The notes under the pieces are model-generated. The model was not told the origin of the DNA, made no database searches, and saw only the letters and a list, made by a program, of their open reading frames with translations. Positions 26,240-54,881 of a DNA stretch of 64,000 nt are shown piece by piece (position 1 is the first letter of the stretch; each line of letters begins with the position of its first letter). Both the position numbers and the translations under genes were made by a program. Origin of the DNA: Lytechinus pictus (taxonomy: Eukaryota); assembly GCF_037042905.1 (NCBI RefSeq), contig NC_087250.1:23562001-23626000 (forward strand), written 5' to 3'.

Positions 26240-27514
26240 GTAATATTTGCCATGATCGCTACGATTTCTCCACGTTTTAGACCATAGTTTCAATCGTGGC
26301 GCGAGTCATTAGAGTGAGAACAAGATATAGCCCAATGGGTATTAACTTCCTCAACAAATATTTGAATAAAAAAGTACAATCCCAAGCAGGTCTTCAAAAT
26401 ATAGGGCTGAGTCGACCGTCCTAAAGAGAAGTTTCAAGAAGTGATAAAGGTGGAGATGAAGGGTTGGTGGGAGACGGAAGTTAAAGGACAAAATAATCAG
26501 ATAATGAATAAAAATGGAGTTGTTTATAGTCGTATGATTCTACAATCCCGTATTTTGTTTAGCTAAAGGCCACCGCTCACCTTATACGACTAGTCCACGA
26601 TCCGATTTTGGAACAAACCGCAATTTGCTCATTTTCTGAAAATGAAAATTATCTTTTTATTTGAGGTCGATATCAACTGAAAGAATAGAACTTGTATAAT
26701 AATTTTGGATGATTGCATGAAGCATTTATTTTGGAGTAAGGGTCAAATTAGTTTCAAATCGTAGCCAGTCATAATTATATTTGCTATGATGTCATTACCA
26801 CTATATATTGAACATGTATGACGATTTAGAACATTACACAGTAAGATATTCCATGTCTCGGTCAATATTACCATCAAATTCAACTACGCCCCCCCCCCCC
26901 CCCCCATCGGATCGCAAACCATTCGAAAGGTAATATCATCATCATCATTATTATCAAAATAAGCAGTAGTAATATTACATTATTATTCTTATAATTAGTT
27001 TAGCAATCCATCGATCTGTTACCATGGTTACAGTGTTACGTCGGCGAGCCAAGGAAATTGACGATCCTGAGTTCGGTCGTATTCCTGCTTTCCGATTTTT
27101 TTTCTTTCATTAGTACGACGGTCACTAATAACGGTTATATTATTTGCAGGTTGTCCAGCCTTTTGCAAATTCCGAGTGATATTTTTCTCATGATGATTTA
27201 CGACTTATCGTGACTTATCATTATCCCCCTTATTGCCTTTTTGTTTTGTTTTATTGCATTACGTAATGATAATTACGATATAGTCGATATTGTAACTAAT
27301 TAATCTATTATATTAATTAAATATTAATAAAAATAGGATGTCTTTTTAAGATGAAAATTTTCACCCAAATCAAATGTTATAACAAAAAATTGAATTTTTA
27401 TGTATATTTAATTGATTTCAACAATAAAGATATAGATTCATATCGTATTTTAGTCGAGATTAGAACTTGTAACTCTATTCTATTTTTATCAAAAAATATA
27501 AACTGCATTATTTC

Positions 27515-27594
27515 AGGTATTGGTTGACGTCTATAACGTTAGTCAAATAATTATTTTTTAGAGAGCCTGACGGAGTGGGTACTTCTCCAGGCTA
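27515..27594 (+). ncRNA. Putative Sm-class small RNA, copy 1 (5' end estimated)
   Basis: 11-bp 5' hairpin (27520-27546), U-tract ATTTTTTAG (27553-27561) and 3' hairpin AGCCTG...CAGGCT (27564-27593). Conserved upstream box at ~27455-27500. Confidence 0.5.
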
Positions 27595-27752
27595 GAATTC
27601 ATTGGGGTGTGGACCTTTGGGGTATACAAAGGGAAAATCATTTCACCCAATTATGATTCGTACAAAGGTGCTCAATATTTTCCGCCAGAACTCATTTGCC
27701 CTATTTAAGTAGAGCGCAGGTTCTTACATTTTTATTGGGCGTTACATTTTTA

Positions 27753-27934
27753 AACTGGGCGTTGTGGCATACGCCCATACGCCTGTAATCCAAGCTATGT
27801 GGGGAAGTTACAGATTGATGCAGAGGTTCGAGCCCTGGTCACGTCTTTCGGATGGTGACGTTAAAGGTCGGTCCCAGACGTAAATAATCAAATCTGATTG
27901 ATACACGTCTGACAAAACTCAAATACACACACAC
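27753..27934 (+). mobile_element. SINE with a 7SL/Alu-domain-like head and (CA)n tail
   Basis: Head CTGGGCGTTGTGGCATACGCC(CATACGCC)TGTAATCCAAGCTA, B-box GGTTCGAGCCC and a 10-bp TSD TACATTTTTA (27743-27752 and 27935-27944). Confidence 0.75.
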
Positions 27935-28423
27935 TACATTTTTATCGTTTCCCTTTGCATGTACTTTGCTGTTGGTACACCGTTAACGTGGGGATATCAT
28001 ACTTGACTGTTTAATTTTGTTGATGTTCTTCAGTCGAGGTTTTCTGTGATGTGTAATCATTCGGAAGATATTAATTTTACTTTATTCAGGGTATATGTTA
28101 TAAAAACAATCAAATTTAACAAAATGACAGTTATTCAACTCCTGTCTTACAAAGAGTTTTGATTTATCCAATCAATCTCAACGGTATGGAAATCCATCCA
28201 TACCATTTTTTTTCAGGAAATTTGAACAATCTCTTAAGTAAACAAAGAGAATCACACTGAATTCTCAAGAGAACAAGGAACATATGAATATACAACCTAT
28301 CTAGAGGATATCTCGAGAGCAAATTTATTTTCGATGTTGACGTTGCTGGCTTTCCATAGTTGTGGTTGATCGGATCATTGTATCTCTTTGTAAGACTAGG
28401 CGCAGAACCATGAGCCTAAACAG

Positions 28424-29012
28424 GGGGCCGTTTCATAAAGCTGTTCTCAAGATAAGAGCGACTTTAAGAACGACCGGTGAACCCTTCTTATGCGCTAAGC
28501 CATCGCATATGTATATACCATTTACCACAAGAAAAGATCACCAGTCGTTCTTAAGGCCACCGCACACCTTACGACTGGTCTGCGACCCGATTTCAGAATA
28601 AAATGTAATATAATTTGATGCTAATATTGAGGCTTGGAATATCTTACTGTGTAATGTTCGAAATCATCGTACGAATACCTATGATCAAATTTGTGACTAT
28701 GCTATCATCCTTCTTAGAATAAAAGCGAATTTAATATCTAGTCGTAATGACGTCATAGCAGTCTTACGATTGGCTACGATTTGAACCTAATTTGGACTTT
28801 ACTCCAAAATAAGGGCTTGCAATCTTTCAAAATTGTTATAATATTAGTATTTCAATTAATTTCAACGTCAAATAAAATGATATGTTCCATTCACATCTTC
28901 AGAAAATGAGCAAAATGCGATTTGTTCCTAAATCGGGTCGCAGACCAGTCGTAAGGTGTGCGGTCGCCTTAAAGTCGCTCTTAACTTACGAACAGCTTTA
29001 TGAAACACCCAC
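28424..29012. mobile_element. Harbinger-like MITE hosting a nested element
   Basis: TIR GGGGCCGTTTCATAAAGCTGTT...AACAGCTTTATGAAACACCCAC with CAG TSD. Confidence 0.8.
28555..28968. mobile_element. TTAA-flanked (Kolobok-like) MITE
   Basis: TIR GGCCACCGCACACCTTACGAC...GTCGTAAGGTGTGCGGTCGCC with TTAA on both sides. Other copies at 36737-37161 and, degenerate, at ~26565-26920. Confidence 0.88.
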
Positions 29013-29090
29013 CAGGTTCAAACGGAATTAGAAATATAACAAGAACATAAAACATTGATTGCAAAAGAAAGCTATCATAACTATTAAACT

Positions 29091-30345: not shown

Positions 30346-30542
30346 ATAGAATTAAATTTAAAACATATACACTCGTGTAAGGCAGAAAAGAGGGAGAGAG
30401 AAAAAGAAAATTGAGTTGAAAATTCTCCTTTATGGTGTAAATCATAGTGGTGATGCGCTTTCAAAGCAAATACCAAGTGAATAAAATATTTCGAATTTGA
30501 TATTATAACTTTTGCTGGTCCTTTCTAATGTAGAAAATTACC

Positions 30543-30950
30543 AATAATAATAATAATAATAATAGTAATAATGATGATGATGATGATGATGATGATAATA
30601 ATGATAGTAATAATGATTATGATAATAATAATGATAAAAATAATAATAATAGTAATAATGATGCTGATGATGATGATGATAATTATAATAATAATGATTA
30701 TAATAATAATAATAGCAATAACAATAATGATGATGATGATGATGATGATAATAATAATGATAATAATGATAATAATAATGATAAAAATAAAAATAATGAT
30801 GATGATGATGATAATGATAATAATGATTATAATAATGATATTAGCAATAATAATGATGATGATGATGATAATAATAATAATAATAATAATGATAATAATA
30901 ATAATAATGATAATAATAATAATGATAATAATATGGATAACATTAAAAAT
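30543..30950. repeat. (AAT/GAT)n microsatellite
   Basis: Simple repeat. Source of the poly-M/I ORF. Confidence 0.97.
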
Positions 30951-31289
30951 AATAACGGCATATTTACTCAGGTATCTACTTCAGTTCCGAAATCAATTCT
31001 TCCAACGGGTCCCGATATTAGTATTATCATTACCCCGGCTTGATGATGAAAGGATTTGCATATTTATAAGTTGATCAAAATGTCCGACAATTACACATCC
31101 CAGTCGATGTTTTAAGTCTGGCTATATTCTCTATAGATATATGACCAATTATATAGTAATGATAATGATGAAAATAATAATGATAATGATTGATAATAAT
31201 AATGATAATTATAATGATAATAATAATGATACATGTAGTAATAGTAATAATAACAAAAAAAATCAATGATGCGAATAATGACTGTAATA

Positions 31290-31675
31290 TTAACAACGGT
31301 CCCCGTACTTGGAACAATTTAACTAATAATTTAATGTCATGCACTACTATGTCATCTTTTAAGGTTGTATTGAAGATACAGCTTGTCTCTTTCTATTTCA
31401 CTTAATTCTTTATTATTACTCATTTAACTACCGATGTATCATGTGTGTTATGGCGTGGGTGTGCAAGGGGTTGTATGTGTGTGCATATGTGTATTATATT
31501 GTAACATGTACAACCAAGTATCTTTTTTCTATTTTGGGGGACTATGTCTAACAAGTTTTTTTTTACTTTCATAATAGTCTCCAACTTCATCATCATATTA
31601 TATCTTGAATGTTTCATGTTACTCTGTATATATATTTTATGATTGAAATGAATTAAATTGAATTGAAATTGAAAT
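31290..31675 (+). mobile_element. 3' remnant of a CR1/L2 LINE
   Basis: Encodes GPRTWNNL...SSFK (ORF2 C-terminus, compare GPRIWNSL at 46 kb) and ends in a (TTGAA)n tail. Confidence 0.7.
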
Positions 31676-32189
31676 CAGTAATAATGATGATAATAATAAT
31701 ATTAATATTAGTAATAGAAATAAAACTACATAATCATACAAATTGTTTTATAAATATCAGACAGTCATACTTCGGTGCTTATACATAGAGGAAAATATTT
31801 TCATTCATTGAAAGGTAGCAAAATACAAGTTATTGAACATGTATCAATATTATTATTTTCAGTGATTTGTTTTATTATATTTTCTGTTCTCAATTATTAT
31901 ATGACTGTAACCGGTATTGCAATTTACTAATCGATTATTGAATTAGTAAAATTTTTATACTGGCTACGTGCGGAGTGCATTATGATGAGATGTCTAAATA
32001 TGATTTTTGTTGATAAAATAATATGATCATACATGTTTTGCATTTTATAAAAAGAAAATTATACTGATTGATACATGAACATGAAAATGAATACGATTTA
32101 GTTCTTAAAATCAATCTTTTTACTTCGAGATTAAGAATATTAACTTTACGTATTAAATTATATATTAATCAAAATGGTTTCATTAAGCT

Positions 32190-32274
32190 CCTATTTGCAT
32201 AAAGCATATTGTACAATAGCTGTATAATGTTCTTTTTGAAGAGCTTAGAGTACTACGCCGTGTATCTCGAGCTT
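32190..32274 (+). ncRNA. Putative Sm-class small RNA, copy 2
   Basis: 5' hairpin ATATTGTACA/TGTATAATGT (32206-32230), CTTTTTGA and an imperfect 3' hairpin at 32242-32273. Upstream TAATCGATTA at 31928 and proximal box at ~32125-32165. Confidence 0.5.
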
Positions 32275-32278
32275 TTAA

Positions 32279-32879
32279 AGGTCAAATCCACCCCGGGGTA
32301 ACGTGTATTTTAATCAATAGAGAAAAAACAAACTAGCAAAACGCTGAAAATTTCATCAAAATCTGATGTAAAATAAGAAAGTTATGACATTTTAAAATTT
32401 CGCTTATTCTTCAAAAGAGTGATACGCACAACTCAGTGACATGCAAATGAGACAGTCGATGATGTCTATCACTCACTATTTCTTTTGTTTTTTATTGTTT
32501 GAATTATACAATATATAAATTTTTACAGATTTGACAATAAGGACCAACTTGACTGAACCATATAGTATTAAACAATGCTGATTCCATATGTTCAGGGAGG
32601 AATTAATTGTTGTTTCACGTGATATTGAAGAGAAAATAAGAATATTTCATATTTCATTTAATAAAATACAAAAGAAATAGTGAGTGAATGATGTCATCAG
32701 TCTCCTCATTTGCATAACGACCAGGATGTGCATATAACTGTTTTGTGAAATTAAGCAAAACTTTAAAATGTCATAACTTTCTTATTTTATATCCGATTTT
32801 GATGAAATTTTCAGTGTCATGCTTGTTGGATTTCTCTCTCTTTATTCAAGTCGACTTTTTGTTGGGATGGACTTGTCCT
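32279..32879. mobile_element. TTAA-flanked (Kolobok-like) palindromic MITE
   Basis: TTAA|AGGTCAAATCCACCCC...GGATGGACTTGTCCT|TTAA with long imperfect inverted arms. Confidence 0.88.
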
Positions 32880-33059
32880 TTAATGCTAACAAAGATGCTA
32901 CTAAGGACATAATAGCACTAGTATAAATGAGAACAACTACCAAATTATTAAAGACGATATAGTCGAGAGTGATATCTCTCTACAGGAAAAATACTTTTTA
33001 TCATATCAACTCTGTAACATATTGCGGTATAAATGAAGGCAATTATGGGTACTGAATTC

Positions 33060-34421: not shown

Positions 34422-35007
34422 AGGAGAATGAAACTCTTGGAGCAAGTTAGCTTTTGTGAAAGCAGAAAAATCAAAGAATAAGATCAACAAAAGTTTGAGT
34501 AAAATAGGACTAGCAATAGAAGAGTTATGAGCATTTGAATGTCGAGATCACTAATGCTATGGAGATCCTCCAATTGGCAATGCGACCAAGATCTATGATG
34601 TCACAGATGAACAACTCTCCCCTTTTGGACACTGAAAATATACCCCAAAACATCTCTTTTTGCTCATTCTAATCATATGACAAACGATTCATCAATGATA
34701 TAATGTTGTGAAACCTCTGTACTTGTCCTCTCATATAAAGAGAACACCTCACCTTGTGATAGACTCTATAAAAGTGAGAATATAAGTGAAATAAGTACTA
34801 AAGTAATGAGGGAGTTGTACGTGTGTGACATCACAGATCTTGGTCGCAATGCCAATGGGAAGATCTACATGGCATTAGTGATCTCAATATTCAAATGCTC
34901 ATAACTTTCTTATTATTCATTCAATCTTCCTCAAACTTTCAACAATATGTTTCTTTGATTTTTCTCTTTGATATGGATTCAGCTGGTTTCAAGGGCTTCA
35001 ATCTCCT
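34422..35007. mobile_element. TTAA-flanked (Kolobok-like) MITE inserted inside Sm-RNA unit 3
   Basis: TTAA|AGGAGAATGAA...TTCAATCTCCT|TTAA with inverted arms (TGTCACAGAT/AGATCTTGGTCGCA motifs). Confidence 0.85.
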
Positions 35008-35024
35008 TTAAGAAATATCTTATA

Positions 35025-35120
35025 ACTTTTTCCTCGACATGTTGTGCTGATGAGTGTCTGAAAAAACAAAATAATTAATTTGTGCAGAGCTTGAAATACA
35101 GCGCCTTGTATATCGAGCTT
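35025..35120 (+). ncRNA. Putative Sm-class small RNA, copy 3 (separated from its upstream box by a MITE)
   Basis: AATTTGTG U-tract followed by hairpin AGCTTGAAATACA-GCGCCT-TGTATATCGAGCT (35088-35119). Confidence 0.45.
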
Positions 35121-36736: not shown

Positions 36737-37161
36737 GGCCACCGCACACCTTACGACTGTTCGCGATCCGATTTTGGGACAAATCGCACTTTGCTCATTT
36801 TCTGAAAATGTGAATGGAACATATCATTTCATTTGAGGTTTAAATTAATAGAAAGAATACTAATATAACCATTTTGAAAGATTGCAAACCTTTATTTTGG
36901 AGTAAAGGCCAAATTAGTTTCAAATCGTAGCCAATCGTACGACTGCTATGACGTCATTACGACTAGATATTAAATTAGCTTTTATTCTAAGAAGAAAGCT
37001 AAGAAGGATGATAGCATAGTCACAGATTTGAACATAGGTATTCGTACGATGATTTCGAACATTACACAGTAAGATATTCCAAGTCTCAATATTAGCATCA
37101 AATTCTACAACATTTTATTCTGAAATCGGGTCGCAGGCCAGTCGTAAGGTGTGCGGTCGCC
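36737..37161. mobile_element. TTAA-flanked MITE (same family as 28555-28968)
   Basis: Same TIRs. Shares the TTAA at 36733-36736 with the preceding element. Confidence 0.88.
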
Positions 37162-38478
37162 TTAACGAGCGAGCGAAGCGTGTGAGAAAAAAAATCACCT
37201 TTTCATGAGAATCTAACTTTGAGATATTCTTTGACATAATATTCAGTAAATAAATCATATCCTACACTTTTCCTTTGTTTTTCGTTCCTCCTTTTTTTAA
37301 TTGGTTGTTGAACTTTTGGGGCCATGGTCCAACCTTTCCATACTTATATACGGCAGTGCTATGCGGTCGGGGTCCGGGGCGGAGCCCCCGGAACTTCTTG
37401 ATATCAAGGCCATTTAAACCTCGCCGATTGCCGCTATTTCTAATCAAATCGAAGGTATATACAGAATATAGCTTTTACACAACACATTTATTCAACCCAG
37501 TTGCGTAATGAACCAAATATTTTGAGGGGGCAAAACACAGCAATGTGGGAAAATTTGTAAAAAGTCCCCAGCGAACAAAGCGAGATGGAAATAAAAAAAA
37601 TGCCTATTGATATTAAATTATAATTATGTGATAGATTTTTCCATTATATTCAACCAATAACACATTTCATTTTTTCCATTCATTTCGTAATACGTTGTCT
37701 CCTATAATTTCTTTTTATTTCCTCTTGGGTGTGGAACCAAAACCCCCCCCGCGCCTGTACGCCAGTGATTGAAAGAAGGGTCCCTACAGGGGGCGTTATA
37801 GATCCATTTAAAGGTTATAGATGAAGAGCCCTTACTGCGTGGGGTCTGGGGCAAAGCCCCGGTAGCTTATTTGCATATTTAGCAAGCTTATAGCACATCT
37901 TTCTCCCCGCTCTTTATTTTTAATCCTCGGCGGCCCGGTCGTGTTATTAATTTTTTTTTCTGTCCCTTTTCTTGGTTTTTCAATTTGGCTTTTGACTAAG
38001 GCATTCTACCTTCGTTTCCCGCTATTGTTTGCCATTCTGTCATCTTTTAATTTATTTCCCATCATGTTATTGCACTACATAGGCCTATTTCGGAATGATT
38101 TGTTCTTTCTCAAATGTTCTTTTTTAGTTCCCTTTCCCGCTTTCCTTCCTTTTCCGTTAAAAAAATTCTTCGTTTTCTTTTCGCTTTTCCCTTTCCCTTT
38201 CCTCCTTTCCTTTTCCCTTTCCTTCCCCTTTCCCTTTCTTTCTCCCTCCCTTTTTTCCTTTCCCCGTTTTTTTTTATTTTCCCGGTGAAATCCACCCCGC
38301 CTGTTACGCCACTGGACTCTTACACAGGGTTCAATTACTCACACACCCTCTCACACATCCTCATACACGCATACGAATAATGCACAAAGCAATCATTACA
38401 TTATTATTATTATCATGAATGAATGAATTATTACTATTTTCATCATTGCACCTGTTTTTTAGATTCGGATATTTAATG

Positions 38479-42794: not shown

Positions 42795-42884
42795 GTCACT
42801 ACGAGTCAATGTAATCTCAAAGAGAAAATATCATATATCAGCTTTTTGGAAAGCCTGGGATACAGCGCCGTGTATCTCGGGCCT
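42795..42884 (+). ncRNA. Putative Sm-class small RNA, copy 5
   Basis: CTTTTTGG followed by hairpin GCCTGGGATACA-GCGCCG-TGTATCTCGGGC (42853-42882). The upstream 42495-42770 region is homologous to unit 3. Confidence 0.55.
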
Positions 42885-43329
42885 ATTACAAACACGTGAA
42901 CATTGATGGGGCATACGAGTAGGGGAGCCGAAGAGTGGCCGAGAGGGTGCCGAAGGAGGCCGAGGGGAGCCGAAGGAGGGTGAAAGGGGGTGCGGAGGTA
43001 TTATCTCCCTGTGCCTCTCCCGTCTCCTCTACATCACCCTTTCCATCATCTTGTTTACATAATGCGAAAGCGCCCCTTTGATAAGCTCGGTCACTTCGCT
43101 CCCTCACTTTCGATTTTTTTTCCCCAAAATGTCTACTGCCCACCAGCCCATCCCCATGCAAAAAACTTCTGCTTTATCGAAAGTTATCCTTTGTTTCCCT
43201 GTGCCCCCACTTTGAACTTTGCTCCACCGCCCCTGCAACACCCGCCATGAGTCAAAGAAGAAACCACTGGGCGTAACACATAGCTGCTTATAATTTAAAG
43301 GTAAAGTCCACCCCAGCTTTTTTTTCGCG

Positions 43330-44040
43330 CTGAATAATCACCAATGAACATTAATGGTGTATATCTTCTACCACAAGAAAGGATCACCAGTCGTTCTTAA
43401 AGTCGCTCTCAAAGGTCAAGTCCACCCCAGCAAAATGTTGATTTTAATCAATAGAGAAAAATCAAACTAGCATAAAACTGAAAATTTCATCAAAATCCGA
43501 TGTAAAATAAGAAAGTTATGGCATTTTAAAGTTTCGCTTATTTTTCACAAAAACAGTGATATGCACAACTCAGTGACATGCAAATGAGACGGCCAATGAT
43601 GTCCATCACTCACTATTTCTTTTGTTTTTTATGTTTGAATTATACAATATTTCATTCTTTCAGATTTGACCATAGGGACCGACTTGATGGAAAGGTTGAT
43701 GTTGAGAAGACGCGAGAGAGAGATAATCATCGACTGTTTCATTTGAGTTGTGCATATCACTGTTTTGTGAAAAATAAGCAAAACTTTAAAATGTCATAAC
43801 TTTCTTAGTTTATGAAAAATTTTGATGAAATCTTCAGCGCTATGCTAGTTTGATTTTTCTCAATTTATTAAAATCAACATTTTTCTGGGGTGGACTTGAC
43901 CTATGAGAGCGGCTTTAAGAACGACTGGTGATCCTTTTTTGTGGTAGAAGATATACACCATTAATGTTCATTGGTGACTATTCAGCGCGTAAGAAAAGCC
44001 CACCAGTCGTTCTTAAAGTCACTCTTTACAAACACCCCCA
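43330..44040. mobile_element. Nested MITEs: Kolobok-like 43413-43902 flanked by inverted Harbinger-like fragments
   Basis: AGGTCAAGTCCACCCC...GGGTGGACTTGACCT lies between inverted CACCAGTCGTTCTTAAAGTCGCTC segments. Confidence 0.75.
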
Positions 44041-44479
44041 GTTTTTTAAAGGAGAGCAAAAAGCATTTGAATCCACACAAAAGAGAGAAAATCAAATAAA
44101 CATATTTCAGGTTTGAGAAAAATCGAATGCATACTAGTAGTAAGAAAGCTTTATTTTGTATATGGATTGAAAATTTTGACAAAAAAACTTCTTCATTAAT
44201 AAAAAAAATATCGATATTACTATTCTATAATCGATTATTGAATTGGCCGGTGAAGACGAAAATAGTTACTAGTATATAAAAAGTATGAACGCTCATTCTC
44301 CTTCTATTCTCAGTAAATTTCATACATTACAATGTCGATTTTATACAAAACACCCAAAATGTATATATTTAGAAGATCATGGATATGATATGGTGTTGGC
44401 AGATATTCCATTCAGGATAGGAAGCAAATTTAACACTCACTACTTTTTTGGCTTTAAAAAATAATTACATATAATAATG

Positions 44480-44566
44480 ATTCATCATCACAATTGGATC
44501 GTGTGTATTGTAAACAACAATACAACTTTTGAAGAGCATGATATATAATTCGTGTGTATCGTGCTT
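44480..44566 (+). ncRNA. Putative Sm-class small RNA, copy 6
   Basis: 8-bp hairpin TGTATTGT/ACAATACA, ACTTTTGA and a 13-bp hairpin AGCATGATATATA-ATTCG-TGTGTATCGTGCT (44535-44565). Upstream ATCGAT pair (44210, 44228) and ACTCACTAC box (44435). Confidence 0.55.
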
Positions 44567-44594
44567 AAGTGTATTCGGGGTTTTCGGGTTTTCA

Positions 44595-45683: not shown

Positions 45684-45688
45684 TTAAA

Positions 45689-48600
45689 TTCAATTCAATT
45701 CAATTCATTTTATTCAATCATTTAAAAAAATCAAAGAATATACAAACCAAAATATATACAAATCATACATGAATGTAACAGTATAGTTTAAATGATTAGG
45801 GTGTCCCTAAAAGCAAAAGCTTGATGAGTGGGACACCCAATACATATATATATATATATATATAAGCGTACATAAAAGTGAAAAGGTAACAATAATAAAC
45901 ACAAACAATACATAAGAAAATAAGACGGTAAACCTACAGGGGAGAGGAGGGGGGGGGTCAGGAAAAGGGTGTGGAAATGAATTGTGTGATTAATTGGCAT
46001 ACATAATTACAAGTGAACTTTTGAGTTTTGTTTTAAATGCAGTAACATTTGTGCTAGAAATTACAGTGGAAGGGAGGGAATTCCATATTCGAGGACCAGT
46101 GGATTTAAATGAATAAAGGGTTGATTGATTGAATGCTACAGGATAATGGAATTTAGAGTTTGAACGGGTATTGTATTGATGGTAGTCTTTATTATATTTA
46201 AATAGATTAATCATATTAAGGGGTGCTAAGTTGTGATTTACGTAGTACATTATAATTGCAATTTGAATTTTATGAATATAAAAAACTGTCAAGGTGTTTA
46301 ATCTAAAAAATAAAGGGCGCGACGGAGCTAGGTAGTGGGAGTTAGAACAAATACGTAAAGCCTTTTTTTGGAGTATGTGTATGGGGTTTAGTTTTGTAGT
46401 GCCACAACTTGCCCAAGTGATATTACCATAATAGATATAAGGAAGCAATAAAGAATTGTAGAGCATAAGCAAATGTTTTTCTGTAAGATTATTACGTAAT
46501 TTAGCTAATATACCTATATTTTTTGACATCTTATTACTAACAAAAAAAGCGGTGTTCATTGTAAGACAATTTGTCATCAAGTACAAATCCTAAGAATTTT
46601 ACGGAATTTACTAATTTTAAAGTTACATTTCTAATTTTAACATTGAAGTCGAAAGATACATTGTGGGATAAATGAGGTTTTCGAAAATACATAACACTTG
46701 TTTTGTCATAATTGACAACGAGTTTGTTTGCATCGAACCAATCACAAATCTTACATAATTCATCATTTGTTTTTTCCAGTAAATATATAAAATTGCTATG
46801 GGTAGAAACAATAGTAGTGTCATCAGCAAATAAAACATAATTAAAGAATGAAGATGCTGAACATAAATCATTTATATAAATAAGGAAGAGAAGCGGGCCC
46901 AGTATGGAGCCTTGGGGGACTCCATACTGGGCGATAGAATATTGAGAATCATAATTGTTAAATGAAGTGTAGTTTTGTCGATCAATTAAGTAGTTCTAGA
47001 ACCATTCCCACACTGCTCCCCTAATACCGTAATGAGATAATTTATATAAGAGAATGTTATGGTCTATGAGGTCGAAGGCTTTTGATAGGTCTAGGAATAT
47101 TCCAAATGAGTGGTAATTATTATTCATATTAGTTAAGAGGGTATTATTTAAGTCAATTAATGCATGCTCACATGAATGTCCAACCCTAAATCCGTATTGA
47201 CAGTTGTTTAATATTCTGTTATTATCTAAGTGGGAAATTAATCTTTTGTAAACAATTTTTTCCAGGATCTTAGAAAAGCATGATAATAATGTAATAGGTC
47301 GGTAATTAGAAAATGAATGTTTATCGCCTTTTTTGAAAACTGGGATGATTTTTCCGATTTTTAAGCTATTAGGTACTTTGCCAGAACATAAAGATAAATT
47401 AAATATATGTACTAATGGTTTAAGTATAGAAAAAATTACTTTTTTGATAACAAAGGAACTTATATCGTCAAAACCGGTACTATAGGTCAACTTTAATTCC
47501 TTAACGATTTTAATTATTTCTAATTCATTGGTCGGATAAAAATACATAGAGGATTGACATGGATTACTTAGGTATTGGCTAAAATGATTTTTGAAATTAT
47601 GAGCAGATTGTTTTAGGGTATTTGAGGCAATGTTGGAAAAGAAGTTGTTAAATTCATTTACTATATCTTGATTATTACAGACTTTAACATTATTTTTCAT
47701 AAAATATAAAGGAAAATTTTGTTTATTTTTCTTACACATTAGGTCGTTTATAATTTGCCAAACCTTTCTAAGATTATTTTTATTCTTGGATAATAAATCA
47801 CAATAATATTTTTTACGAGCTGATCTTAATAGCTGATTTAAAATGTTACGATATTTCTTATATTTCATTTCAATTGATTTAGTACGTTTTTGGCAAAAAA
47901 GTTTGTGAAGTCGATTTTTTTTATTGATACATTTTAACAAGCCATGACTAATCCAAGGCTTTTTAGCCGAAATCTTAGTCTTTTTTTCAAGTTTACAATT
48001 CACATTAAATGCTGATTTGAATACTTCAAGGAAATTATTATATGCATCATCTGCATCACCTAATGATAATATATGATTCCAGTCAAAAGAGAGTAAAATT
48101 TTGTTGAGGCTATCAATATTTTCTTTGTTAATGCTTCTTTTCTTAAAATTCAAATCGACGTCTGTTTTAGAATAAGACCTTATATTACGGGTAATTGAAA
48201 AAATTGGCAAATGGTCAGTTGTATCGTCATAAAATATTCCAGAAGATATATTATTTTCGCATACATTCGTAAAAATATTGTCGATTAAAGTTGTCGAGCA
48301 ATGTGTTATTCTTGTAGGTCGGTTAATCAAGGGTCTGAGGGAATTATTATACATTATATTAAAAAAATCATTGACATTTGCAACTGATGAACTATTCAAC
48401 AAATTTATATTCCAGTCACCCATAATATATATATTCTTGTTTTCATTTATAATTTTACTAAGGCATGTATTTACATCGTTATTAAAATCAGTTACATTTG
48501 AACCAGGATCACGATAAATAATTCCAATGATTATGTTTTTTTTATCACATATATTAATTTCAAGAAAGAGAGATTCACATAAGTTTTGCGCTAGATTTAT

Positions 48601-50200
48601 ATCCACTCTTTCTATCACATTCAATGAATCATGAATCAACATGGCTACTCCACCACCTCTACTTTTTGTTCTGTCACAGTGAAAAGAATTATAATTTTCC
48701 ATATGGAATAGTTCTTTTGGAGTTAATGGGTGCATCCAGGTTTCACTGAATTCATATATTAAAAAATTAGGACTAATTTGTTTTGTAATAAAATCGTGTA
48801 TATTTTCAAAATTTTTATGCAAGCTTCTTGCGTTAAAATGGAGTACACTAAATGCATCATTATCAAAAGTCATTTCAGAATTGAATTCAGCGGGTAACCA
48901 GTATCTACTTGGATTATCAAGTACAGGGCAGTTAACATCGGGATCAATATTTGATAAGTTATCTTCTTTATTTATGCACATGTTAATTTCACAATCATTT
49001 AACTCATATTGTATATCATGGTTGACAAGGTTGCCAAATTCTATATCGGAAAGGTTGTTAAAAGGGAAAGGGGATTCACAAAATAACATAATTTACTCAA
49101 AGATTAAGGGTAAAAAATACAATGGAAAAACAAGTAAAAAAACATAAAAATAAAAAAATCTTGTATTAAAATTGTTACATAAACAAGAGTGCAATTGGGG
49201 TACACAATAGTTTATTCACACTTTCAAGTTTCATTACATGTAGTCCAACAGTCTTTAAAGTTTCATGAGTTCATCCTTTGTTCGTATGTGTCTTTTCATT
49301 GTTCTGTTTCCCGTTGTAGCGAGCAGTGCAATGATCCGGCCATCAGAGGCCCAAGCTTCTTTGACTTTTTCATGTTACTTTGTAGTGTAGAGCAGCTCTT
49401 GATTGGCAGCGGTCAATGACTCGTCAATTCCGATTCCAGAACCTTTCAGTTTTCTGCGGGATCGGAGAACTTCGTTCCGTTTTCGGTAAGACGTGAATTT
49501 TACCACTATTGATCGTGCCTTTTTCTTTCTTCCTTCTACTTTTTCATTGTTCCTCACAGCGACACGGTGTGATCTATCTATATCATGCTTCGATAATTCC
49601 ACGCCCAGCTTATCTTTGGCAATGGTGCACACAAGGTCATCTGTATCTTCTCTATCATGCTCTGCTACCCCGAAGAACTTCAAACAATTGCGTCTCGAGT
49701 ATTGTTCTGCTTCGTTGACGGCAATTTGAAGATTGTTAATTGCGTTGCTCTGATTGGTTGATAGTTCTTTCAGTGCTTTGATTTCGTTCTCCTTAACTCG
49801 AAGGTCTATCTCTAATTCCATTCTATTTCCATCATAGCGGTCAAGTCGCTCAGTAATATCATTGTTCGACTTTTCGATTAGCTCAAGTCGATGCAAGAAC
49901 TTGGTCATTTCTTTGTTCATTGCCCTTTCAACAGCCCTTTCTACTGATTTCTCAATGGAACTGAGGAATTCATCACCTTTGAGATAATCATTGGCTGCAG
50001 CAACAGCCGCCGCTTGGGCCTTCGCCATGATGAAAATATGAAGACCGAATATGAGAATATTATAAGAAATGTTATAATGAATATAGAATGTTGATTGTGC
50101 GACCTTCAGGCGTTTCACAAATTGTAGTTTAGTTTATACACGATACATTACATTGCGTTAAGTTTTCTGCAGATAAAAAGGCCCTCAAAATTAATTGGTA
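45689..50200 (-). mobile_element. Near full-length CR1/L2-group LINE with intact ORF1 and disrupted ORF2
   Basis: ORF1 at 49375-50118 (coiled coil, EQYSRRNCL, IDRSHRV). ORF2 at 49089-46996 (APE: HFNARSL, SETW, GDWNINLL, TDHLPIF; RT: YRPITLL, QYGFR, DLSKAFD) continues after a stop and frameshifts to 45990 (GVPQGS, FADD). 3' (TTGAA)n tail at ~45689-45712. The 5' end is approximate. Confidence 0.93.
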
Positions 50201-50585
50201 ATCATTGTTCTCATACACCAAATGCACTCTATCACACTCAATCTATCACAAATGCCTTTCATGACAAAGCATGAGCAAGAAGTCTTTGTCGAAACTTGGT
50301 GAATCAGAAGAATACTTTGTTCCTGGCAATATTTCGTTAGCTCCCAAACTAAGTACGATCACTGATGTTCCTGCTCTCCCATTTTCGACAAAGACCTCCC
50401 ATCTGTTCATTGTCATTTGATGGACAACTTCAATACATTGACTGTGTTCTAGAATCTGTCCCCGTTGCAGTTGTAAAAACGGCATACAATATTATTCCAA
50501 ATGGGTGGTCATAAATACCTATCAAGGTTTGTCAAGACAGCCACCCTTATATAAATGAAATAAGTAACATTGACATTAAAATGTG

Positions 50586-51320
50586 GAGAGCGTTTCATGA
50601 GACGATTTGTCAGACGTTTTATCCGACAGTTACCTAGTAATTGAGCTTCTCAGGCAATAAAATTCAAAGAAAGTTGTCTTACAGTAATATTGATGAAACC
50701 CTCTCCAGGAGGGGGGTTCAGCAACATTTTCGTCCGACAAGTTGCCATCGGGGGGGCGTTTCATGAAAGGACTTGTCGGACGTTTTATCCGACAAGTCCC
50801 ATTTTATCCGACAGTTACCATAGTAACAGTACCTCTCAGCCAATCAAAATCATGGAAAGATGTCAGATCTGACAACTTGCTGGATGAAAATATTAATGAA
50901 ACGCTCTCCCGGTCTGACAACTTTCCTTGATTCTAATTGGCTGAGAAGTAACTGTCGGATAAAACGTCTGACAAGTACTTTCATGAAACCCTCCCCGGTT
51001 TTGTACTTTTTTCTGTCACGGTTGAAATGTTTATTCCATCATGAGAATAAACTAAAAGAGATGATTTTTTTCAGTGTCCAAAGGAGAGTGTTTTCGAAGT
51101 TTGACATCTCGCTCACATCGGCAACCATATTCCAATTACGCGAGAGACCAGGGGACCGTTTCATGAAGTTGTCAGCACTGACAACTTGACTTTCTCCGAC
51201 AGTTACCATGGTAACAGTCAGAGGTTAGTGCCTCTCAGCCAATCAAAACCAAGGATTTCACTGAAATTGTCAGCTCTGACAATTTAGTCAGCAATGACAA
51301 CTTTCATGAAACACCCCCCA
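50586..51320. mobile_element. Cluster of nested short Harbinger-like MITEs (CGTTTCATGAAA...TTTCATGAAAC)
   Basis: Repeated palindromic units with TTGTCGGA/TCCGACAA and AGTTACCATAGTAAC cores. Another copy at 61492-61648. Confidence 0.75.
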
Positions 51321-51789
51321 GGTGAGCGCACGTAATGAGTCAAATAAATATGAAGACGAATTTAAGCTATTAACAAATATTTTCATAACCCCCCCTTCCC
51401 ATCACCGCGGCCTCTTCACTCAGATATTCCATGTCCTAATAACATAGTCTAAGCCCTAAACCTTGGTATACCACGACCCTCCCTAAACATCCCCTATTTC
51501 CGCTGAATAATAATCGATCATACAATTCGTTAATCGATTATTAAATTTGGTGCGGAACACAAGAGGCGGTTCTCAGGTGCAAAATAAGTATGATTACTCG
51601 TAATTTTATCTTCAATTTCTTTTATAAATTAAAGGTTGATTAAACATTCGAGACAACACTTATATATTAAAAAGCAATGATATTGATTCAGAGTTGGAAA
51701 ACTTTTTATTTTATTCACAAGTGGAAACCAAAGATAAGACTCACCACATTTGTTGTGATAAAAATAATAATTTATCTACTAGTTTCCAT

Positions 51790-51881
51790 GCGGGTGATAA
51801 AAAAATAATTTTTGCTTACAAATTACGTTAATCGTAACAACTTTTGAGAAGCTTAAAATGCAGTCCGTGCATTTTGAGCTA
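51790..51881 (+). ncRNA. Putative Sm-class small RNA, copy 7
   Basis: ACTTTTGA followed by a 13-bp hairpin AGCTTAAAATGCA-GTCCG-TGCATTTTGAGCT (51850-51880). Upstream ATCGAT pair (51512, 51531) and ACTCACCACATTTG box (51739). Confidence 0.55.
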
Positions 51882-52485
51882 TTTTGTGATAATATATATT
51901 GCTTGAATCTCTTGTCCCCCCCCCCCCCCTCCCGAACGAACTAATTGCTATTTGTCTGATAAGCCAGTTCGGAGTTCAATTCTGCGCATGATCACAAGGT
52001 CATTTGTATTACAGTGACAATGGTAGTTTAATGTTTATATCAATGAGATAAGCACCAACTTTGATGTCTTGATTACTCATAATTCTTTTGTATTGTGCTT
52101 TCCAGTCATGTCATTTAGATTGACAAAAAACAACAATGAGTCCTCAAACGACTGGTATTTCAAAGTTGGCCGAGAACATTGTTATAGCATGGACAAGTAG
52201 GTCAACATGGTCAATGGTTATAGCAACATGACGATGCATTCAAAGTAGAAATTCAACAAATACCTTCATAGAGTGTTAATTGGTGTGCTATTCTAGTCGC
52301 CTGGGGCCCGTAACACAAAGCTTAGTGAATGATCGTAGAACATTTTTTCTACGATTGATTGCATTGACTACAATGTACAATCAATGGTAAAAATCAAGCG
52401 TACGATTTATAGTCAACCTTTGTGTTCCGGGACCCTGGTCAATGAAATTTCTGCATCCTCCTATGTAAGGCCAAGGAGTTTTTAA

Positions 52486-53075
52486 AGGGGAATCCAACCC
52501 AAATACAAACTTGCTTTTAGAGGAAAAGGAAGAATCAGACAAGTTGATAGGTGAAAGTTTTAAAAATATTGGACAAACAATAAGAAAGAATTTTTAAAAG
52601 TTGTGATTATTGGTAATCACTATACCCATGGAGATTTCAAATTGGCCACAAATATGATGTCATAGTGATGTAAAGCAAGGACTACTCTTCCATGTACTCC
52701 AATACATAAAATGGCTAAAATTACATTTTAAAAAAGAGTTTTATTTCAAATTATATTTTTCTTTCATGGGGACACAACACAATGTACTACCTAGGCTATA
52801 TTTAGATTACAGTCCCGTGGGAATGGGTACTTAAAAGAAAACTACAAATCACTGATAATAAATTACATGGCATATGGGAAAGTTGTCCGTGACACTTGTC
52901 ATAATTTACTTACCCAGTTGCCAATTTGAAATCTACATAGTCTTAGGAATCTCAATTTTAAAACAGCCATAACCTTCTTATTGCTTGTCCGATTTCTTTC
53001 AAACTTTCACCATTCTGTTTTATTTAATTTTCTCCTGTCAAACACAACATATTATGACCAAGGCTGGATTCCCCT
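52486..53075. mobile_element. TTAA-flanked (Kolobok-like) MITE
   Basis: TTAA|AGGGGAATCCAACC...GGCTGGATTCCCCT|TTAA. Confidence 0.85.
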
Positions 53076-53954
53076 TTAAGACATGGAGAACCATCAAACT
53101 CATTCCATTTATAGCCACTTTGATACCGCAATGATTAACTATGTAAGAAATGTGTTTCATTGCATATTTCTTGCAGATTGTAGACAAAATTGTCCTGCCT
53201 AACAACAGACTTACAGGCGAATTACAAAAGGAAACATGCTTTTGTAATGATATTTACTTTACGCTGCTTCTGGTTGGATAATATGAGCAGACACATTGCT
53301 CTCCTTTACAGGGGACAGCAAAAATAAATGTTGCAATATTTCTTAAGATATGATTTAAAATTTATCGACTGGCTGCATTTGGCCCCGGTTTTGACACATA
53401 GCATCAAAAATTGATACATTTTAACAAACTAATATAATATTTTTATAGTGTCGTAACATCCACTATTTTCGCTGAATAATAATAGTAATAATAATAATAG
53501 ATAATAATATTTGTTTATTTATGTTACTAAGTATTGTTATCTTTGATTTAGATTTTGACTTTATTTTCATGTATGATTTGATGATTTATGTTGTTCTTTA
53601 TGTTTTCATCAGGTCATTGATGAAAAACAGTTTTATGCTGATCTTTTGTACCTGAATAAATATGTTCTAATAAATAAATAAATAAGTAATCGATCATCCA
53701 ATTTGTTAATCGATTATTACATTTGGTGCGGATGACAAGAGGCGTTCTCAGCAAAATAAGTATGGGCGCTCATTATAATTTTATCCTCAAATTCCTTTAT
53801 GAATGAAATGTCAATTAATCGTTTATAAGAAACTTATATGTAAAAAGCATTGACATTGATTCAGTGTTGAAATTTATTTATATCATTTATAATTGGAAAC
53901 CAAAGATATGACTCACCACATTTGTTGTGATAAAAAGAATTTATATTCCAAAAG

Positions 53955-54038
53955 TTTGAACCTTCAATCGCTAACACATTTTGTGTACGGAATTTAGTTT
54001 TTGAGAAGCTTGAATGCAGTCCGTGTATTTTGAGCTTT
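53955..54038 (+). ncRNA. Putative Sm-class small RNA, copy 8
   Basis: GTTTTTGA followed by hairpin AGCTTGAATGCA-GTCCG-TGTATTTTGAGCT (54007-54036). The upstream 53687-53940 region is closely homologous to unit 7. Confidence 0.55.
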
Positions 54039-54574
54039 CATTGTGATATTTTATGTAAGGAAGCCTGTCTCTCCCTCCCCCCTTCCCCCAGACGATATGT
54101 TCGTGTTTGGTCCATAACTGGTCAAATATTAATCCCTCCGCTACCCACATGGTATAATTGCTACTTCGTCAACTCACAATTTCGTCTAATAACCATTTGG
54201 CCAAATAGCCGTCTCGTCCGTATACCGTTTGGTCTAATAAGCCAGTTCTCAGCAAAATAATTATGATGCCTCACTATCGTTTTATTCTCAATGTCCTTAG
54301 AATATCAAATGTCAATTTCATATTTAAAGGACATTGAGCAACAAATATTTAAAAAAATATATATATTAAACAACAAAATATTATTTTGTTTAATATTAAT
54401 ATTTTGTGTCAGATATTTGTTTAATATTAAAAAATATTAAACAAAAAATATAATATATCCAAAAAACATCGTTATTGATTCAGTGTTGAAAAAGATTTCA
54501 TTTCATTCACAATTGGAACAAAAAATAAGACCCACTGCTTTTCTTGTGATGAAAAAATCATTATATATTTTTGT

Positions 54575-54675
54575 ACCGTTTCTCATCAGTGTGTACGCTT
54601 TGCACGTGCGATTGACAATGATTGAATAAAACATTTTTTGAATAGCTCGGAATACAGTTCGTGTATTCTGAGCTT
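54575..54675 (+). ncRNA. Putative Sm-class small RNA, copy 9
   Basis: 5' hairpin TCAGTGTGTACG...CGTGCGATTGA, canonical ATTTTTTGA and a 13-bp hairpin AGCTCGGAATACA-GTTCG-TGTATTCTGAGCT (54644-54674). Upstream box at 54530. Confidence 0.55.
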
Positions 54676-54881
54676 CTGATCATTTCTGGGTATCTGCTTC
54701 CTCCCCTAATCCAGTGACCCGTAACGGTAACACAAAGCTTAGTGAATGATTGTAGAACATTTTTCTACAATTGATTGCATTGACTACAATGTACAATCAA
54801 ACGTAAGAATCGAGCGTACGATTAATCGCTAACCTTTGTGTTACGAGACCCAGGTCACTGATTCGATCAATCACATCTACA

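Follow-up and report, generated by a model that had tools for sequence, protein, structure and literature searches.

Organization of the Locus

The window, a 64-kb stretch of the Lytechinus pictus genome, contains nine modules (u1–u9) in which a U-tract is followed by a hairpin. All nine hairpins lie at the positions and on the strands given by an initial annotation made from the sequence; the stem limits proposed there also hold, except that the copies at 40377 and 42853 each extend by one base per side. A covariance model run with filters off returned exactly nine module matches in the window (34.6–57.7 bits), and the next match, beyond the nine and their opposite-strand echoes, scored 17.4 bits. 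When the covariance model was applied to the 20 kb that precede the window, seven further, more diverged copies (v1–v7) were recovered 7–17 kb upstream of it. The family thus comprises at least 16 copies within ~72 kb, and both the original count of nine and the original extent (27280–54680) were too small. With model R2, the 16 copies scored 29.4–56.6 bits in the 94 kb scanned, where the best non-member match (20.3 bits) is an opposite-strand echo. The unit length is ~320–350 bp. The locus is repeat-rich, with LINE and inverted-repeat insertions.

Units with all elements contain a distal palindrome, a proximal sequence element (PSE) or PSE-like box, a TATA-like box, a predicted start, a U-tract and the hairpin. 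The most diverged unit, u1 (27469–27593, plus strand; R1 34.6 bits, R2 29.4 bits), has a PSE-like GTAACTCTATT at 27469–27479, a predicted start at ~27529, a U-tract at 27552–27563 and a hairpin at 27564–27593; an exact AATCGATT was not found upstream. Unit u2 (31929–32273, plus strand; R1 52.7 bits) has a distal AATCGATT at 31929–31936, 301 bp upstream of the module, a PSE-like TTAACTTTACG at ~32140–32152, a predicted start at ~32202, a U-tract at 32230–32241 and a hairpin at 32242–32273. An inverted-repeat element (arms 32275–32406 and 32752–32883) begins directly 3′ of the u2 hairpin. In u3 (35076–35119, plus strand; R1 54.9 bits), a canonical Sm-like AAUUUGUG lies within 35076–35087 and is followed by a hairpin at 35088–35119; a PSE and a distal AATCGATT were searched for and neither was recognized. 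The only minus-strand unit in the window, u4 (40376–40711; R1 56.2 bits), has a distal AATCGATT at 40704–40711 (285 bp upstream), a PSE-like GTAACTGTACT at 40498–40508, a predicted start at ~40448, a U-tract with canonical A-U5-G at 40408–40419 and a hairpin at 40376–40407.

The remaining five units are on the plus strand. Unit u5 (42741–42883; R1 55.8 bits) has a PSE-like GTAACTTTATT at 42741–42751, a predicted start at ~42801, a U-tract at 42840–42851 and a hairpin at 42852–42883. Unit u6 (44229–44565; R1 54.0 bits) carries a distal AATCGATT at 44229–44236 (294 bp upstream), a PSE, CTCACTACTTT, at 44436–44446, a TATA-like box at 44458–44476, a predicted start G at 44496, a U-tract at 44523–44534 and a hairpin at 44535–44565. 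Units u7 (51532–51880; R1 57.7 bits) and u8 (53708–54036; R1 52.7 bits) share the PSE-like CTCACCACATT, located at 51740–51750 and 53912–53922, respectively. The distal AATCGATT of u7 is at 51532–51539 (306 bp upstream), its TATA-like box at 51762–51780, its predicted start at ~51800, its U-tract at 51838–51849 and its hairpin at 51850–51880; in u8, the distal AATCGATT is at 53708–53715 (287 bp upstream), the predicted start at ~53972, the U-tract at 53995–54006 and the hairpin at 54007–54036. Unit u9 (54531–54674; R1 57.2 bits) has a PSE, CCCACTGCTTT, at 54531–54541, a TATA-like box at 54553–54571, a predicted start G at 54591, a U-tract with canonical A-U6-G at 54632–54643 and a hairpin at 54644–54674.

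Structure and Covariation of the 3′ Hairpin

The module alignment has the consensus TTTTTGAAG-AGCTTGGAATACAG..CCGTGTAT.TCGAGCT, and the terminal hairpin consists of a stem of 12–13 bp and a conserved loop (CAG..CGUG). In the nine copies of the window, 88.8% of 116 stem cells are paired, and both sides vary at 6 of 13 pairs; slid partners pair in at most 51.4% of cells. In 500 shuffles, the observed percentage paired, number of double-change cells and covariation score were never reached, and 5 of the 500 reached the number of double-change pairs. Covariation had been proposed at three pairs and is present at each: UA 6, AU 1 and CG 1 at pair 4; AU 3, GC 2 and UA 1 at pair 8; and AU 6, GC 1 and GU 1 at pair 11. 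Among all 16 copies, whose alignment had been fitted to the model, pairing holds in 90.7% of 205 cells, both sides vary at 7 of 13 pairs and there are 25 double-change cells. The percentage paired, the double-change cells and the covariation score (0.448 vs. 0.212) were reached by none of 500 shuffles of the 16 copies, whereas the number of double-change pairs was matched by 60 and the number of pair types by 8. The module strand has 25 G-U cells, and pairing on the opposite strand decreases to 82.9% (16 copies).

A hairpin of this kind could in principle be the end of a mobile element, either Helitron/Helentron-like or a retroelement 3′ tail, and the subterminal hairpin with a sharp homology end, the presence in 6 of the 16 copies of CTRR no more than 12 nt after the hairpin, and the (CAA)n run that follows u4 are consistent with such an origin. 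However, CTRR has no common position among the copies, and a transposon end would account for neither the G-U-rich covariation nor the snRNA promoter boxes described below. The 812-Mb genome was searched for copies by four patterns and BLAST of two units (the covariance-model scan covered the locus region), and no copy outside the 72-kb locus was found. A strict 22-nt pattern gave two matches and a hairpin pattern three, all in the locus; a loose pattern gave 14, of which seven are in the locus and the other seven score at most 16.9 bits; an Sm pattern gave 21, of which three are in the locus and the other 18 score at most 14.6 bits; and BLAST gave local matches only. In these searches and in the 16 copies, the family shows neither the many dispersed copies nor the consistent CTRR ~10–12 nt after the hairpin that are expected of Helitrons and Helentrons. 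The initial annotation had held that hundreds of dispersed copies with such termini would overturn the gene reading, which withstands this search, and a transposon end is exceedingly unlikely.

The U-Rich Sm-Like Site

The tract before the hairpin is U-rich, of the form UUUUGRRRAG or AAUUUGUGAAG, and a 3′ stem-loop follows it immediately in all 16 copies, which is the layout of the ‘snRNP code’. An Sm site had been assigned to this position; a canonical site (AUUUGUG or A-U4–6-G) is present in only 6 of 16 copies. At least four U residues followed by G occur in 11 of the 16 tracts, whereas u1 has a T6 run followed by A. Three copies have the Sm-like AAUUUGUG, and the v3 site, AAAUUUAUU, resembles the Sm sites of the genome's U5 and U1. 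Predicted folds leave the site unpaired in 11 of the 16 copies, whereas in v1, v5, v6, u4 and u5 some or all of it is paired. The T4 run before the hairpin is missing in four of the 16 (u3, v2, v3 and v4), which have AATTTGTG (three copies) or AAATTTATT (one copy) and keep an Sm-like sequence; these variants appear Sm-like rather than terminator-like.

Promoter-Like Elements

The PSE motif YTMACTGYTTT was derived from the genome's own U1 and U2 genes: CTCACTGTTTT is located at −60 and TATATAG at −30 of the tandem U2 gene, and TTAACTGCTTT at −60 of the tandem U1 gene. On both strands of 104 kb, the exact motif occurs three times, in two cases 92–101 nt ahead of a module. Allowing up to one mismatch gives 32 occurrences, of which five precede a module (0.15 expected); these lie 87–101 nt before the module and belong to only 5 of the 16 units, including u6 and u9 (101 nt in u9). 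Units u1, u2, u4 and u5 have diverged PSE boxes of a GTAACT type, and v2, like u3, has no recognizable PSE. A TATA-like box follows the PSE by ~25–30 bp; as read from the sequences, TATATAG in v3 and v6 and TATATAT in v4 are 28–30 bp after the PSE, as in U2. The start is predicted ~60 bp after the PSE, and 5 of 7 CTCAC-type units have G at PSE+60; the PSE would thus be placed as in Sm-class snRNA genes, ~55–60 bp before the start.

The distal palindrome, (T)AATCGATT(A), is located ~285 bp upstream (268–306 bp before the module). Ten of the 12 AATCGATT sites in the 104 kb fall in this range and serve 11 of the 16 units, one site being shared by the divergent v4 and v5. The canonical U6 gene has the same distal motif, as TAATCGATTAT, at −295, and the tandem U2 gene has it at −558. 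Its placement corresponds to that of the distal enhancer ~200–300 bp upstream of Sm-class snRNA genes, and it may function as such.

The snRNA promoter signals, the U-rich site and the conserved hairpin together suggest that the units probably encode undescribed small nuclear RNAs. We favor the reading that at least 16 genes, restricted to this locus, form a multigene family for a putative small nuclear RNA of ~65–110 nt, probably lineage-specific and Sm-class-like. The gene-like character of the units that was initially proposed is strengthened by correctly spaced promoter elements of the kind used by the genome's own snRNA genes, the covarying hairpin, the non-dispersed copies and the lack of an Rfam match.

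The combination of PSE, TATA-like box and U6-like distal motif is also compatible with an RNA polymerase III type-3 promoter. Polymerase III genes of this type would here produce RNAs of ~25–65 nt that end at the T-run, such that the ‘Sm site’ would be a terminator and the hairpin would lie outside the RNA. The TATA-like box after the PSE, the distal TAATCGATT in common with U6, the resemblance of TTAACTGTAAA in U6 variant genes to the GTAACT-type boxes of u1, u2, u4 and u5, and the T-runs (four or more T, then G) of 11 of the 16 units would fit this. However, RNA-type covariation with 25 G-U cells in a hairpin beyond the T-run is unexplained if the hairpin is untranscribed, and the four units without a T4 run retain the Sm-like sequence. 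At least four T residues within 20 nt 3′ of the hairpin occur in only 4 of 16 units, and a hairpin-containing polymerase III RNA would therefore have no consistent terminator. In addition, the polymerase II U2 gene has the same 30 bp PSE–TATA spacing and an internal T5 Sm site, and the spacing in U6 genes is 35–47 bp. The family does not have the T-run terminator at the functional RNA end that is typical of type-3 genes, and we consider transcription by polymerase III distinctly unlikely.

The Predicted RNA and Its 3′ End

As Sm-class-like snRNAs, the predicted products of 65–110 nt would consist of a 5′ domain, the Sm-like site and the conserved 3′ hairpin. The 5′ domain (23–65 nt) diverges fast and is less conserved than any other part of the unit (27/70 identical between u7 and u8); 5′ domains share only TATA-like k-mers, and v4 and v7 have similar predicted 5′ ends (GUCAAUAG and GUCAGUAG). 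A stem-loop on each side of the Sm site had been proposed. The 3′ hairpin is found in all copies, but the 5′ hairpin is modestly supported (mean z −0.95), being clear in about half of the copies and strong in ~4 units.

In the L. pictus genome, a 3′ box, (G)CAAAGAAAGA, is located at +11 to +13 after U1, U2 and U5. The CAAAGAAAGA box is not enriched after the family hairpins, where the best matches in the 16 units equal background (two mismatches in one unit, three in five, four in six and five in four), and only v4 has CAAAGAATTA, at ~+14. The family thus has no counterpart of the 3′ box found 9–19 nt after the RNA end in Sm-class snRNA genes.

A conserved hairpin that follows a conserved U/purine-rich tract and has no snRNA 3′ box behind it might instead act in cis, as a 3′-end signal or regulatory element in unannotated longer transcripts, similar to the histone stem-loop processing signal, rather than being part of a small RNA gene. 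Against this, no ORF or conserved exon was found upstream of the modules, the blocks conserved upstream resemble promoters and lie only 83–125 nt before the module, and no part of the unit is less conserved than the segment between these blocks and the module. Such an element is thus highly improbable.

The absence of the 3′ box also bears on whether the array is decaying and functionless, consisting of unexpressed relics of duplicated snRNA genes, such as a truncated U1- or U5-like 3′ domain. Many promoters are degraded, Sm sites are non-canonical in 10 of 16 copies, the family is confined to a single locus that is rich in repeats and bears LINE and inverted-repeat insertions, and the module is weakly similar to the 3′ domain of the genome's U1 (mean z 1.26, maximum 2.8). 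However, subfamily stems that differ widely (AGCUUGAGAUACA, AGUUUGCAAUACA and AGCCCGCAAGGCA) remain 90.7% paired; in the recent duplicates v6 and v5, the hairpin (33/35 identical) is better kept than the neutral flanks (405/477); the PSE/TATA block of u7 and u8 is 38/40 identical vs. 177/252 in the upstream flank; and R2 has no match in the U1 gene at E ≤ 10. We regard decay of the whole array as unlikely, although it deserves some weight.

For a functional snRNA family, the following mechanism can be proposed. The genes would be transcribed by the snRNA-specific RNA polymerase II machinery, and the Sm site with its adjacent 3′ hairpin (‘snRNP code’) would direct Sm-ring assembly. The variable 5′ domain may provide paralogue-specific specificity or may simply lack constraint. 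Units u3, v2 and v5, whose promoters are degraded, may be dying copies in a birth-and-death family.

Relationship to Known Sm-Class RNAs

The proposal that the modules match no known snRNA family agrees with an Rfam search, in which nothing in the window reached gathering score and the SmY and U7 models gave no match at E ≤ 10 over 27000–55000. U7 snRNA is short and has a variable or antisense 5′ part, an Sm-type site, a 3′ terminal hairpin and an snRNA-type promoter. The predicted RNAs of the family would be like U7 (RF00066) in shortness, variable 5′ part, 3′ hairpin and promoter type, with an Sm-like site before the hairpin, whereas many copies have an extra predicted 5′ hairpin. It does not belong to U7: there is no RF00066 match, and the 5′ domains contain no complement of the box (best, 3 mismatches of 10), a CAAAGAAAGA-type box having been used rather than the genome's own histone downstream element.

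SmY RNAs act in spliced-leader trans-splicing, which to our knowledge is not known for the organism studied here. As described for nematodes, SmY is a lineage-specific multigene family of short RNAs, with twelve genes in C. elegans and an Sm site flanked by stem-loops (PMC11229312). The present family is like SmY (RF01844) in layout, in being multigene, in the shortness of its predicted RNAs and probably in restriction to one lineage. In SmY, however, the conserved motif is in the first stem-loop, whereas the present family conserves the second (3′) hairpin and varies most in the 5′ domain. With a conserved loop in the second hairpin, a modest 5′ hairpin and no RF01844 match, the family is not part of SmY. 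Drosophila LU (Like-U) is a lineage-specific Sm-class snRNA that was recognized by its PSEA/PSEB promoter, Sm site and covarying stems; according to the cited account, it is encoded by a single gene, its expression, TMG cap and Sm binding have been demonstrated, and it is thought to have arisen by U snRNA gene duplication and rapid divergence, with a similar 3′ stem-loop being kept (PMC4053861). Promoter elements of the snRNA type and covarying stems are common to LU and the present family, which is probably also lineage-specific and has an Sm-like site, but the two are set apart by description: LU is a single gene with a demonstrated RNA, whereas here at least 16 clustered paralogues are known from genomic sequence. 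The family resembles SmY and LU in layout and belongs to neither, and it is probably a new family inside a known class, that of the Sm-class snRNA genes.

The RNA bodies of the genome's own U1, U2, U5 and U6 are unrelated to the family, which also differs in its lack of the U1/U2/U5 3′ box; R2 found nothing better than 13.1 bits (E 0.25) over these four loci. The likeness to these genes lies in the general order of Sm or Sm-like site and terminal hairpin, in the distal motif common to U6, and in the YTMACTGYTTT element, which in U2 is at the same distance from the TATA box.

A Covarying Hairpin Module in 16 Copies

All nine hairpins that the initial annotation reported in the window (C6:23562001-23626000) are present, each preceded by a U/purine tract, and their consensus is TTTTTGAAG-AGCTTGGAATACAG..CCGTGTAT.TCGAGCT. 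RNAalifold predicts a single 13-bp helix, in which pairing is kept in 88.8% of 116 cells and six pairs stay paired through double changes; the three covarying pairs singled out earlier behave as claimed in the nine-copy pair counts. None of 500 shuffles matches the observed percentage of pairing, number of double-change cells or covariation score, 5/500 reach the observed count of doubly changed pairs, and pairing does not exceed 51.4% when the partners are slid. A covariance model built from these nine copies (R1), run with filters off over the 64-kb window, recovers exactly the nine at 34.6-57.7 bits, the best score apart from them and their opposite-strand echoes being 17.4 bits.

The proposed family therefore stands as an observation, and it extends from nine to 16 copies through seven further units (v1-v7) in the 20 kb preceding the window (L036 and L037), which R1 scores at 23.5-39.6 bits. 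Their modules, each consisting of a U-tract and the terminal hairpin, lie at L036:2591-2638 (+), L036:6477-6522 (+) and L036:7991-8035 (+) for v1 to v3, at L037:285-330 (-) and L037:900-949 (+) for v4 and v5, and at L037:1732-1781 (+) and L037:2973-3022 (+) for v6 and v7. The stems of v1-v7 are very unlike those of the window copies (AGUUUGCAAUACA..., AGCCCGCAAGGCA..., AGUUCUUCAUACA...); what is retained is the overall layout, together with the loop (CAG..CGUG) and a U-tract that is often AAUUUGUGAAG. No copy is found in the next 40 kb upstream (C6:23502001-23542000; best score 11.9 bits) or in the 20 kb downstream of the window (best score 15.6 bits). A second model built from all 16 copies (R2) returns the same 16 over 94 kb at 29.4-56.6 bits, with everything else at or below 20.3 bits.

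In the 16-copy alignment, which was fitted to the model, 90.7% of 205 cells are paired (161 Watson-Crick, 25 G-U, 19 unpaired), double changes occur in 7 of the 13 pairs (25 cells), and the covariation score is 0.448, vs 0.212 for shuffles. Again none of the three measures (percentage of pairing, double-change cells, covariation score) is equalled by any of 500 shuffles, while 60/500 have as many pairs with double changes and 8/500 as many pair types. The 25 G-U cells, together with a fall in pairing to 82.9% on the opposite strand, provide a moderate argument for an RNA encoded on this strand.

Placement of the Detected Copies in One Locus

Rfam yields no match at the gathering score across the whole window; at E up to 10, positions 27000-55000 give ten weak, unrelated matches, all far below cut-offs and none overlapping a module. 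Membership of SmY, U7 or any other Rfam family is accordingly rejected. A genome-wide search with the U7 model (RF00066) finds no U7 among the 65 scored of about 190,000 candidates.

In the 812-Mb, 368-contig assembly, a 22-nt pattern has two matches, both in the locus (reversed control, 0), and a hairpin pattern has three, all in the locus (control, 0). A loose pattern covering both subfamilies gives 14 matches (control, 4), of which seven are members and the other seven score at most 16.9 bits, and AATTTGTGMAGAGYYY gives 21 (control, 9): three members, plus 18 whose scores do not exceed 14.6 bits. BLAST searches with the u7 unit, from the window, and with the v4-v5 pair return matches in the locus only. 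With three mismatches allowed, the pattern has 1085 matches vs 488 in the reversed control; five of 30 inspected loci are in the locus, and a hairpin is seen by eye in none of the other 25. The initial annotation had named hundreds of dispersed copies with Helitron-style termini as the finding that would turn the hairpin into a transposon end: the pattern and BLAST searches exclude such a population, and a transposon end is rejected because they place the copies in the locus only. More diverged clusters may exist elsewhere, since these searches are pattern- or word-based.

snRNA Promoter Elements in the Genome and Promoter-like Elements in the Family

In sea urchins, U1 and U2 genes are described as standing in tandem, in arrays of about 1.4 and 1.1 kb, respectively. 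In this genome, tandem U2 genes (1.04-kb repeat, period about 1.037 kb; C8:33237223-33284622) carry CTCACTGTTTT at -60, TATATAG at -30 and a 3′ box, CAAAGAAAGAA, at +13; tandem U1 genes (1.405-kb repeat; C2:31961190-32010256) carry TTAACTGCTTT at -60 and a 3′ box, GCAAAGAAAGA, at +13; and tandem U5 genes (about 1.36-kb repeat; C13:21634859-21678634) have a proximal box that differs from that of U1/U2 and the same 3′ box. The 3′ box, (G)CAAAGAAAGA, is located 11-13 nt past the RNA end in the U1, U2 and U5 arrays alike. Canonical U6 has CTCAC at -77, TATA at -30 and TAATCGATTAT at -295. Taken together, the snRNA promoter grammar of the genome consists of a proximal sequence element (PSE), YTMACTGYTTT, at -60, TATA at -30 (tandem U2) and TAATCGATT as distal motif, with CAAAGAAAGA as 3′ box.

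Three loci (C2:21564484, C2:21576121 and C6:16101906) hold a variant of U6 whose 5′ stem differs (beginning GTCGACAAGAAATTGTTGAC) and which has its own PSE, TTAACTGTAAA at -66, and a TATA box. A fourth copy of this variant (C16:14319947) has poly(A) after it and resembles a retropseudogene.

Alignment of the family units reveals conserved blocks upstream of the modules. The exact U2 box is present in v4 and v7 and, with one base changed, in v6; u6 and u9 are two bases off the U2 box, yet have at most one mismatch from the U1/U2 consensus. Exact YTMACTGYTTT occurs three times on both strands of 104 kb, and two of these sites sit 92-101 nt before a module; at up to one mismatch there are 32 occurrences, five of them before a module vs 0.15 expected. 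A GTAACT/TTAACT variant box is found in u1, u2, u4 and u5, and no proximal box is recognised in u3 or v2. A TATA-like box follows the proximal box by 25-30 bp, and the U2 spacing is kept by TATATAG in v3 and v6 and by TATATAT in v4. Further upstream, 104 kb contain 12 sites for the palindrome AATCGATT, ten of which stand 268-306 bp before a module; these ten cover 11 of the 16 units, v4 and v5 diverging from a common site. Promoters are degraded in several units. After the family hairpins, the U1/U2/U5 3′ box is not enriched, its mismatch distribution equalling background; v4 alone has CAAAGAATTA at roughly the right distance.

Around a lone TAATCGATTAT at L036:9046 (C6:23551046), the 420 bp to each side contain no module; given the microsatellites that follow it, this site may be what is left of a lost unit.

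Predicted RNA and Sm-like Site

With the start set at PSE + 60, a distance taken from the U2 spacing, the predicted RNAs are 65-110 nt long, with putative starts near, for example, window 44496, 51800 and 54591 and, for v4, about L037:371 (-). Of seven CTCAC-type units, five have G at the predicted start, and the predicted 5′ ends of v4 (GUCAAUAG) and v7 (GUCAGUAG) are similar. In folding predictions, 11 of the 16 copies have a single-stranded U-tract followed by the 3′ hairpin, and a 5′ hairpin adjoins the U-tract in v3, v4, v7, u2, u6, u7 and u9. Across all 16 copies, the 45 nt before the U-tract fold better than their shuffled versions (mean z -0.95; control segments, -0.07 and -0.14), the effect being largest in v4 (z -4.6) and v7 (-2.1).

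The U-tract matches a canonical Sm site (AUUUGUG or A-U4-6-G) in 6/16 copies and is non-canonical in 10/16; at least four U residues followed by G are found in 11/16. A polymerase III promoter would also suit the units, in that a PSE, a TATA box and a U6-like distal element are compatible with this polymerase, with the U-tract then serving as a terminator. However, a hairpin located past a terminator would not be expected to covary as RNA, and only 4/16 copies have at least four T residues within 20 nt past the hairpin. In addition, the four copies that lack a T4 run have AAUUUGUG (three copies) or AAAUUUAUU (one copy), the latter similar to the U5 and U1 Sm sites of the same genome, and these Sm-like variants favour a putative Sm site over a terminator for polymerase III.

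Divergence of the 5′ Domain

The part of the predicted RNA between the start and the U-tract (the 5′ domain) is the quickest-diverging and outpaces the flanks in two pairs of units, as judged by identical over aligned positions and by Fisher tests of the 5′ domain against the flanks. For v6/v5, identity is 191/231 and 214/246 in the flanks, 33/35 in the hairpin, 33/60 in the PSE/TATA region and 36/62 in the 5′ domain (p 4e-6); for u7/u8, it is 177/252 in the upstream flank, 26/34 in the hairpin, 38/40 in the PSE/TATA region and 27/70 in the 5′ domain (p 2.5e-6). The 5′ domains have no common k-mer that survives correction, except TATA-like AT-rich ones, and antisense targets within 104 kb are at chance level (best 15/15 nt, E 0.004, uncorrected for 16 queries). 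Divergence faster than that of the flanks may reflect diversifying selection, or else mutation linked to transcription in a segment free of constraint. The pattern, in which promoter and Sm/hairpin scaffold are conserved and the 5′ domain changes faster than the flanks, is unusual, and would be informative under either selection or mutation.

A rather unlikely extension is a 'constant scaffold, variable head' system, in which a fixed snRNP-assembly module joined to a 5′ domain outpacing neutral flanks would yield a repertoire of Sm-class RNPs. The Sm site and the conserved 3′ hairpin, with a protein-binding loop, would form the scaffold for snRNP assembly, and the variable heads would address different RNA or protein targets, more like a U7-like guide set than one housekeeping snRNA.

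Relation to Known Sm-Class RNAs

The SMN/Gemin5 system recognises an Sm site together with the hairpin 3′ of it. The units probably constitute a lineage-specific, locally amplified snRNA-type gene family, encoding predicted Sm-class-like RNAs in which a conserved assembly module is combined with a 5′ domain that evolves fast. The family is new and its class is already known; as far as a keyword search of the open-access literature shows, such a family is undescribed.

Herpesvirus HSURs are Sm-class RNAs outside the spliceosomal set. Few such RNAs are recognised beyond that set, the examples considered here being U7, nematode SmY, Drosophila LU and HSURs. SmY RNAs function in trans-splicing (PMC11229312); the present family differs in that its conserved hairpin is the second one, and it has no Rfam match. 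LU is a lineage-specific Sm-class snRNA that was recognised through its promoter, Sm site and covariation, and is thought to be a diverged U5 copy retaining the 3′ stem-loop (PMC4053861). LU is the best precedent for the origin of the family, but it is a single gene with shown expression. Derivation of the module from U1 is unsupported: up to E 10, R2 matches nothing in the U1 gene, and the mean alignment z is 1.26.

If the proposed assignment is correct, another animal lineage would have a new family that is both clustered and fast-evolving. This would imply that the snRNA gene toolkit repeatedly gives rise to new snRNPs, and would offer a tractable case for reuse of the 'snRNP code'.

Locus Context

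Two intronless ORFs of 369 and 385 aa (window 13076-14182 (-) and 21834-22988 (-)) match Pfam 7tm_1 (E 1e-19 and 4e-19), and both of these rhodopsin-type GPCR ORFs lie in the interval separating the RNA family's two subclusters; for one GPCR ORF, the nearest protein-atlas clusters are molluscan and echinoderm. Fragments of LINEs and inverted-repeat elements are scattered through the locus. A non-LTR retrotransposon (window 45993-50133 (-)) has a 698-aa ORF for endonuclease and reverse transcriptase and a 252-aa ORF that is coiled-coil and ORF1-like; a second RT fragment and a PHD-finger ORF are also present (18062-18868 (+) and 16684-17241 (+)). MITE-like elements, whose inverted arms measure 130-240 bp and are 80-91% complementary, occupy window 32275-32883, 43316-43999 and 34464-34965; one begins 2 nt past the u2 hairpin and thus may have removed the native 3′ flank of u2. 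Inverted repeats of about 400 bp (window 28551-28941 and 36763-37165; 90-95% complementary) flank about 8 kb containing u2 and u3, and an (ATA/ATG)n-type microsatellite of about 600 bp lies at 30460-31100. Of the words sampled from window 50200-55000, about 8% occur in the runs of a second organism, and part of this stretch is therefore near-identical in a relative.
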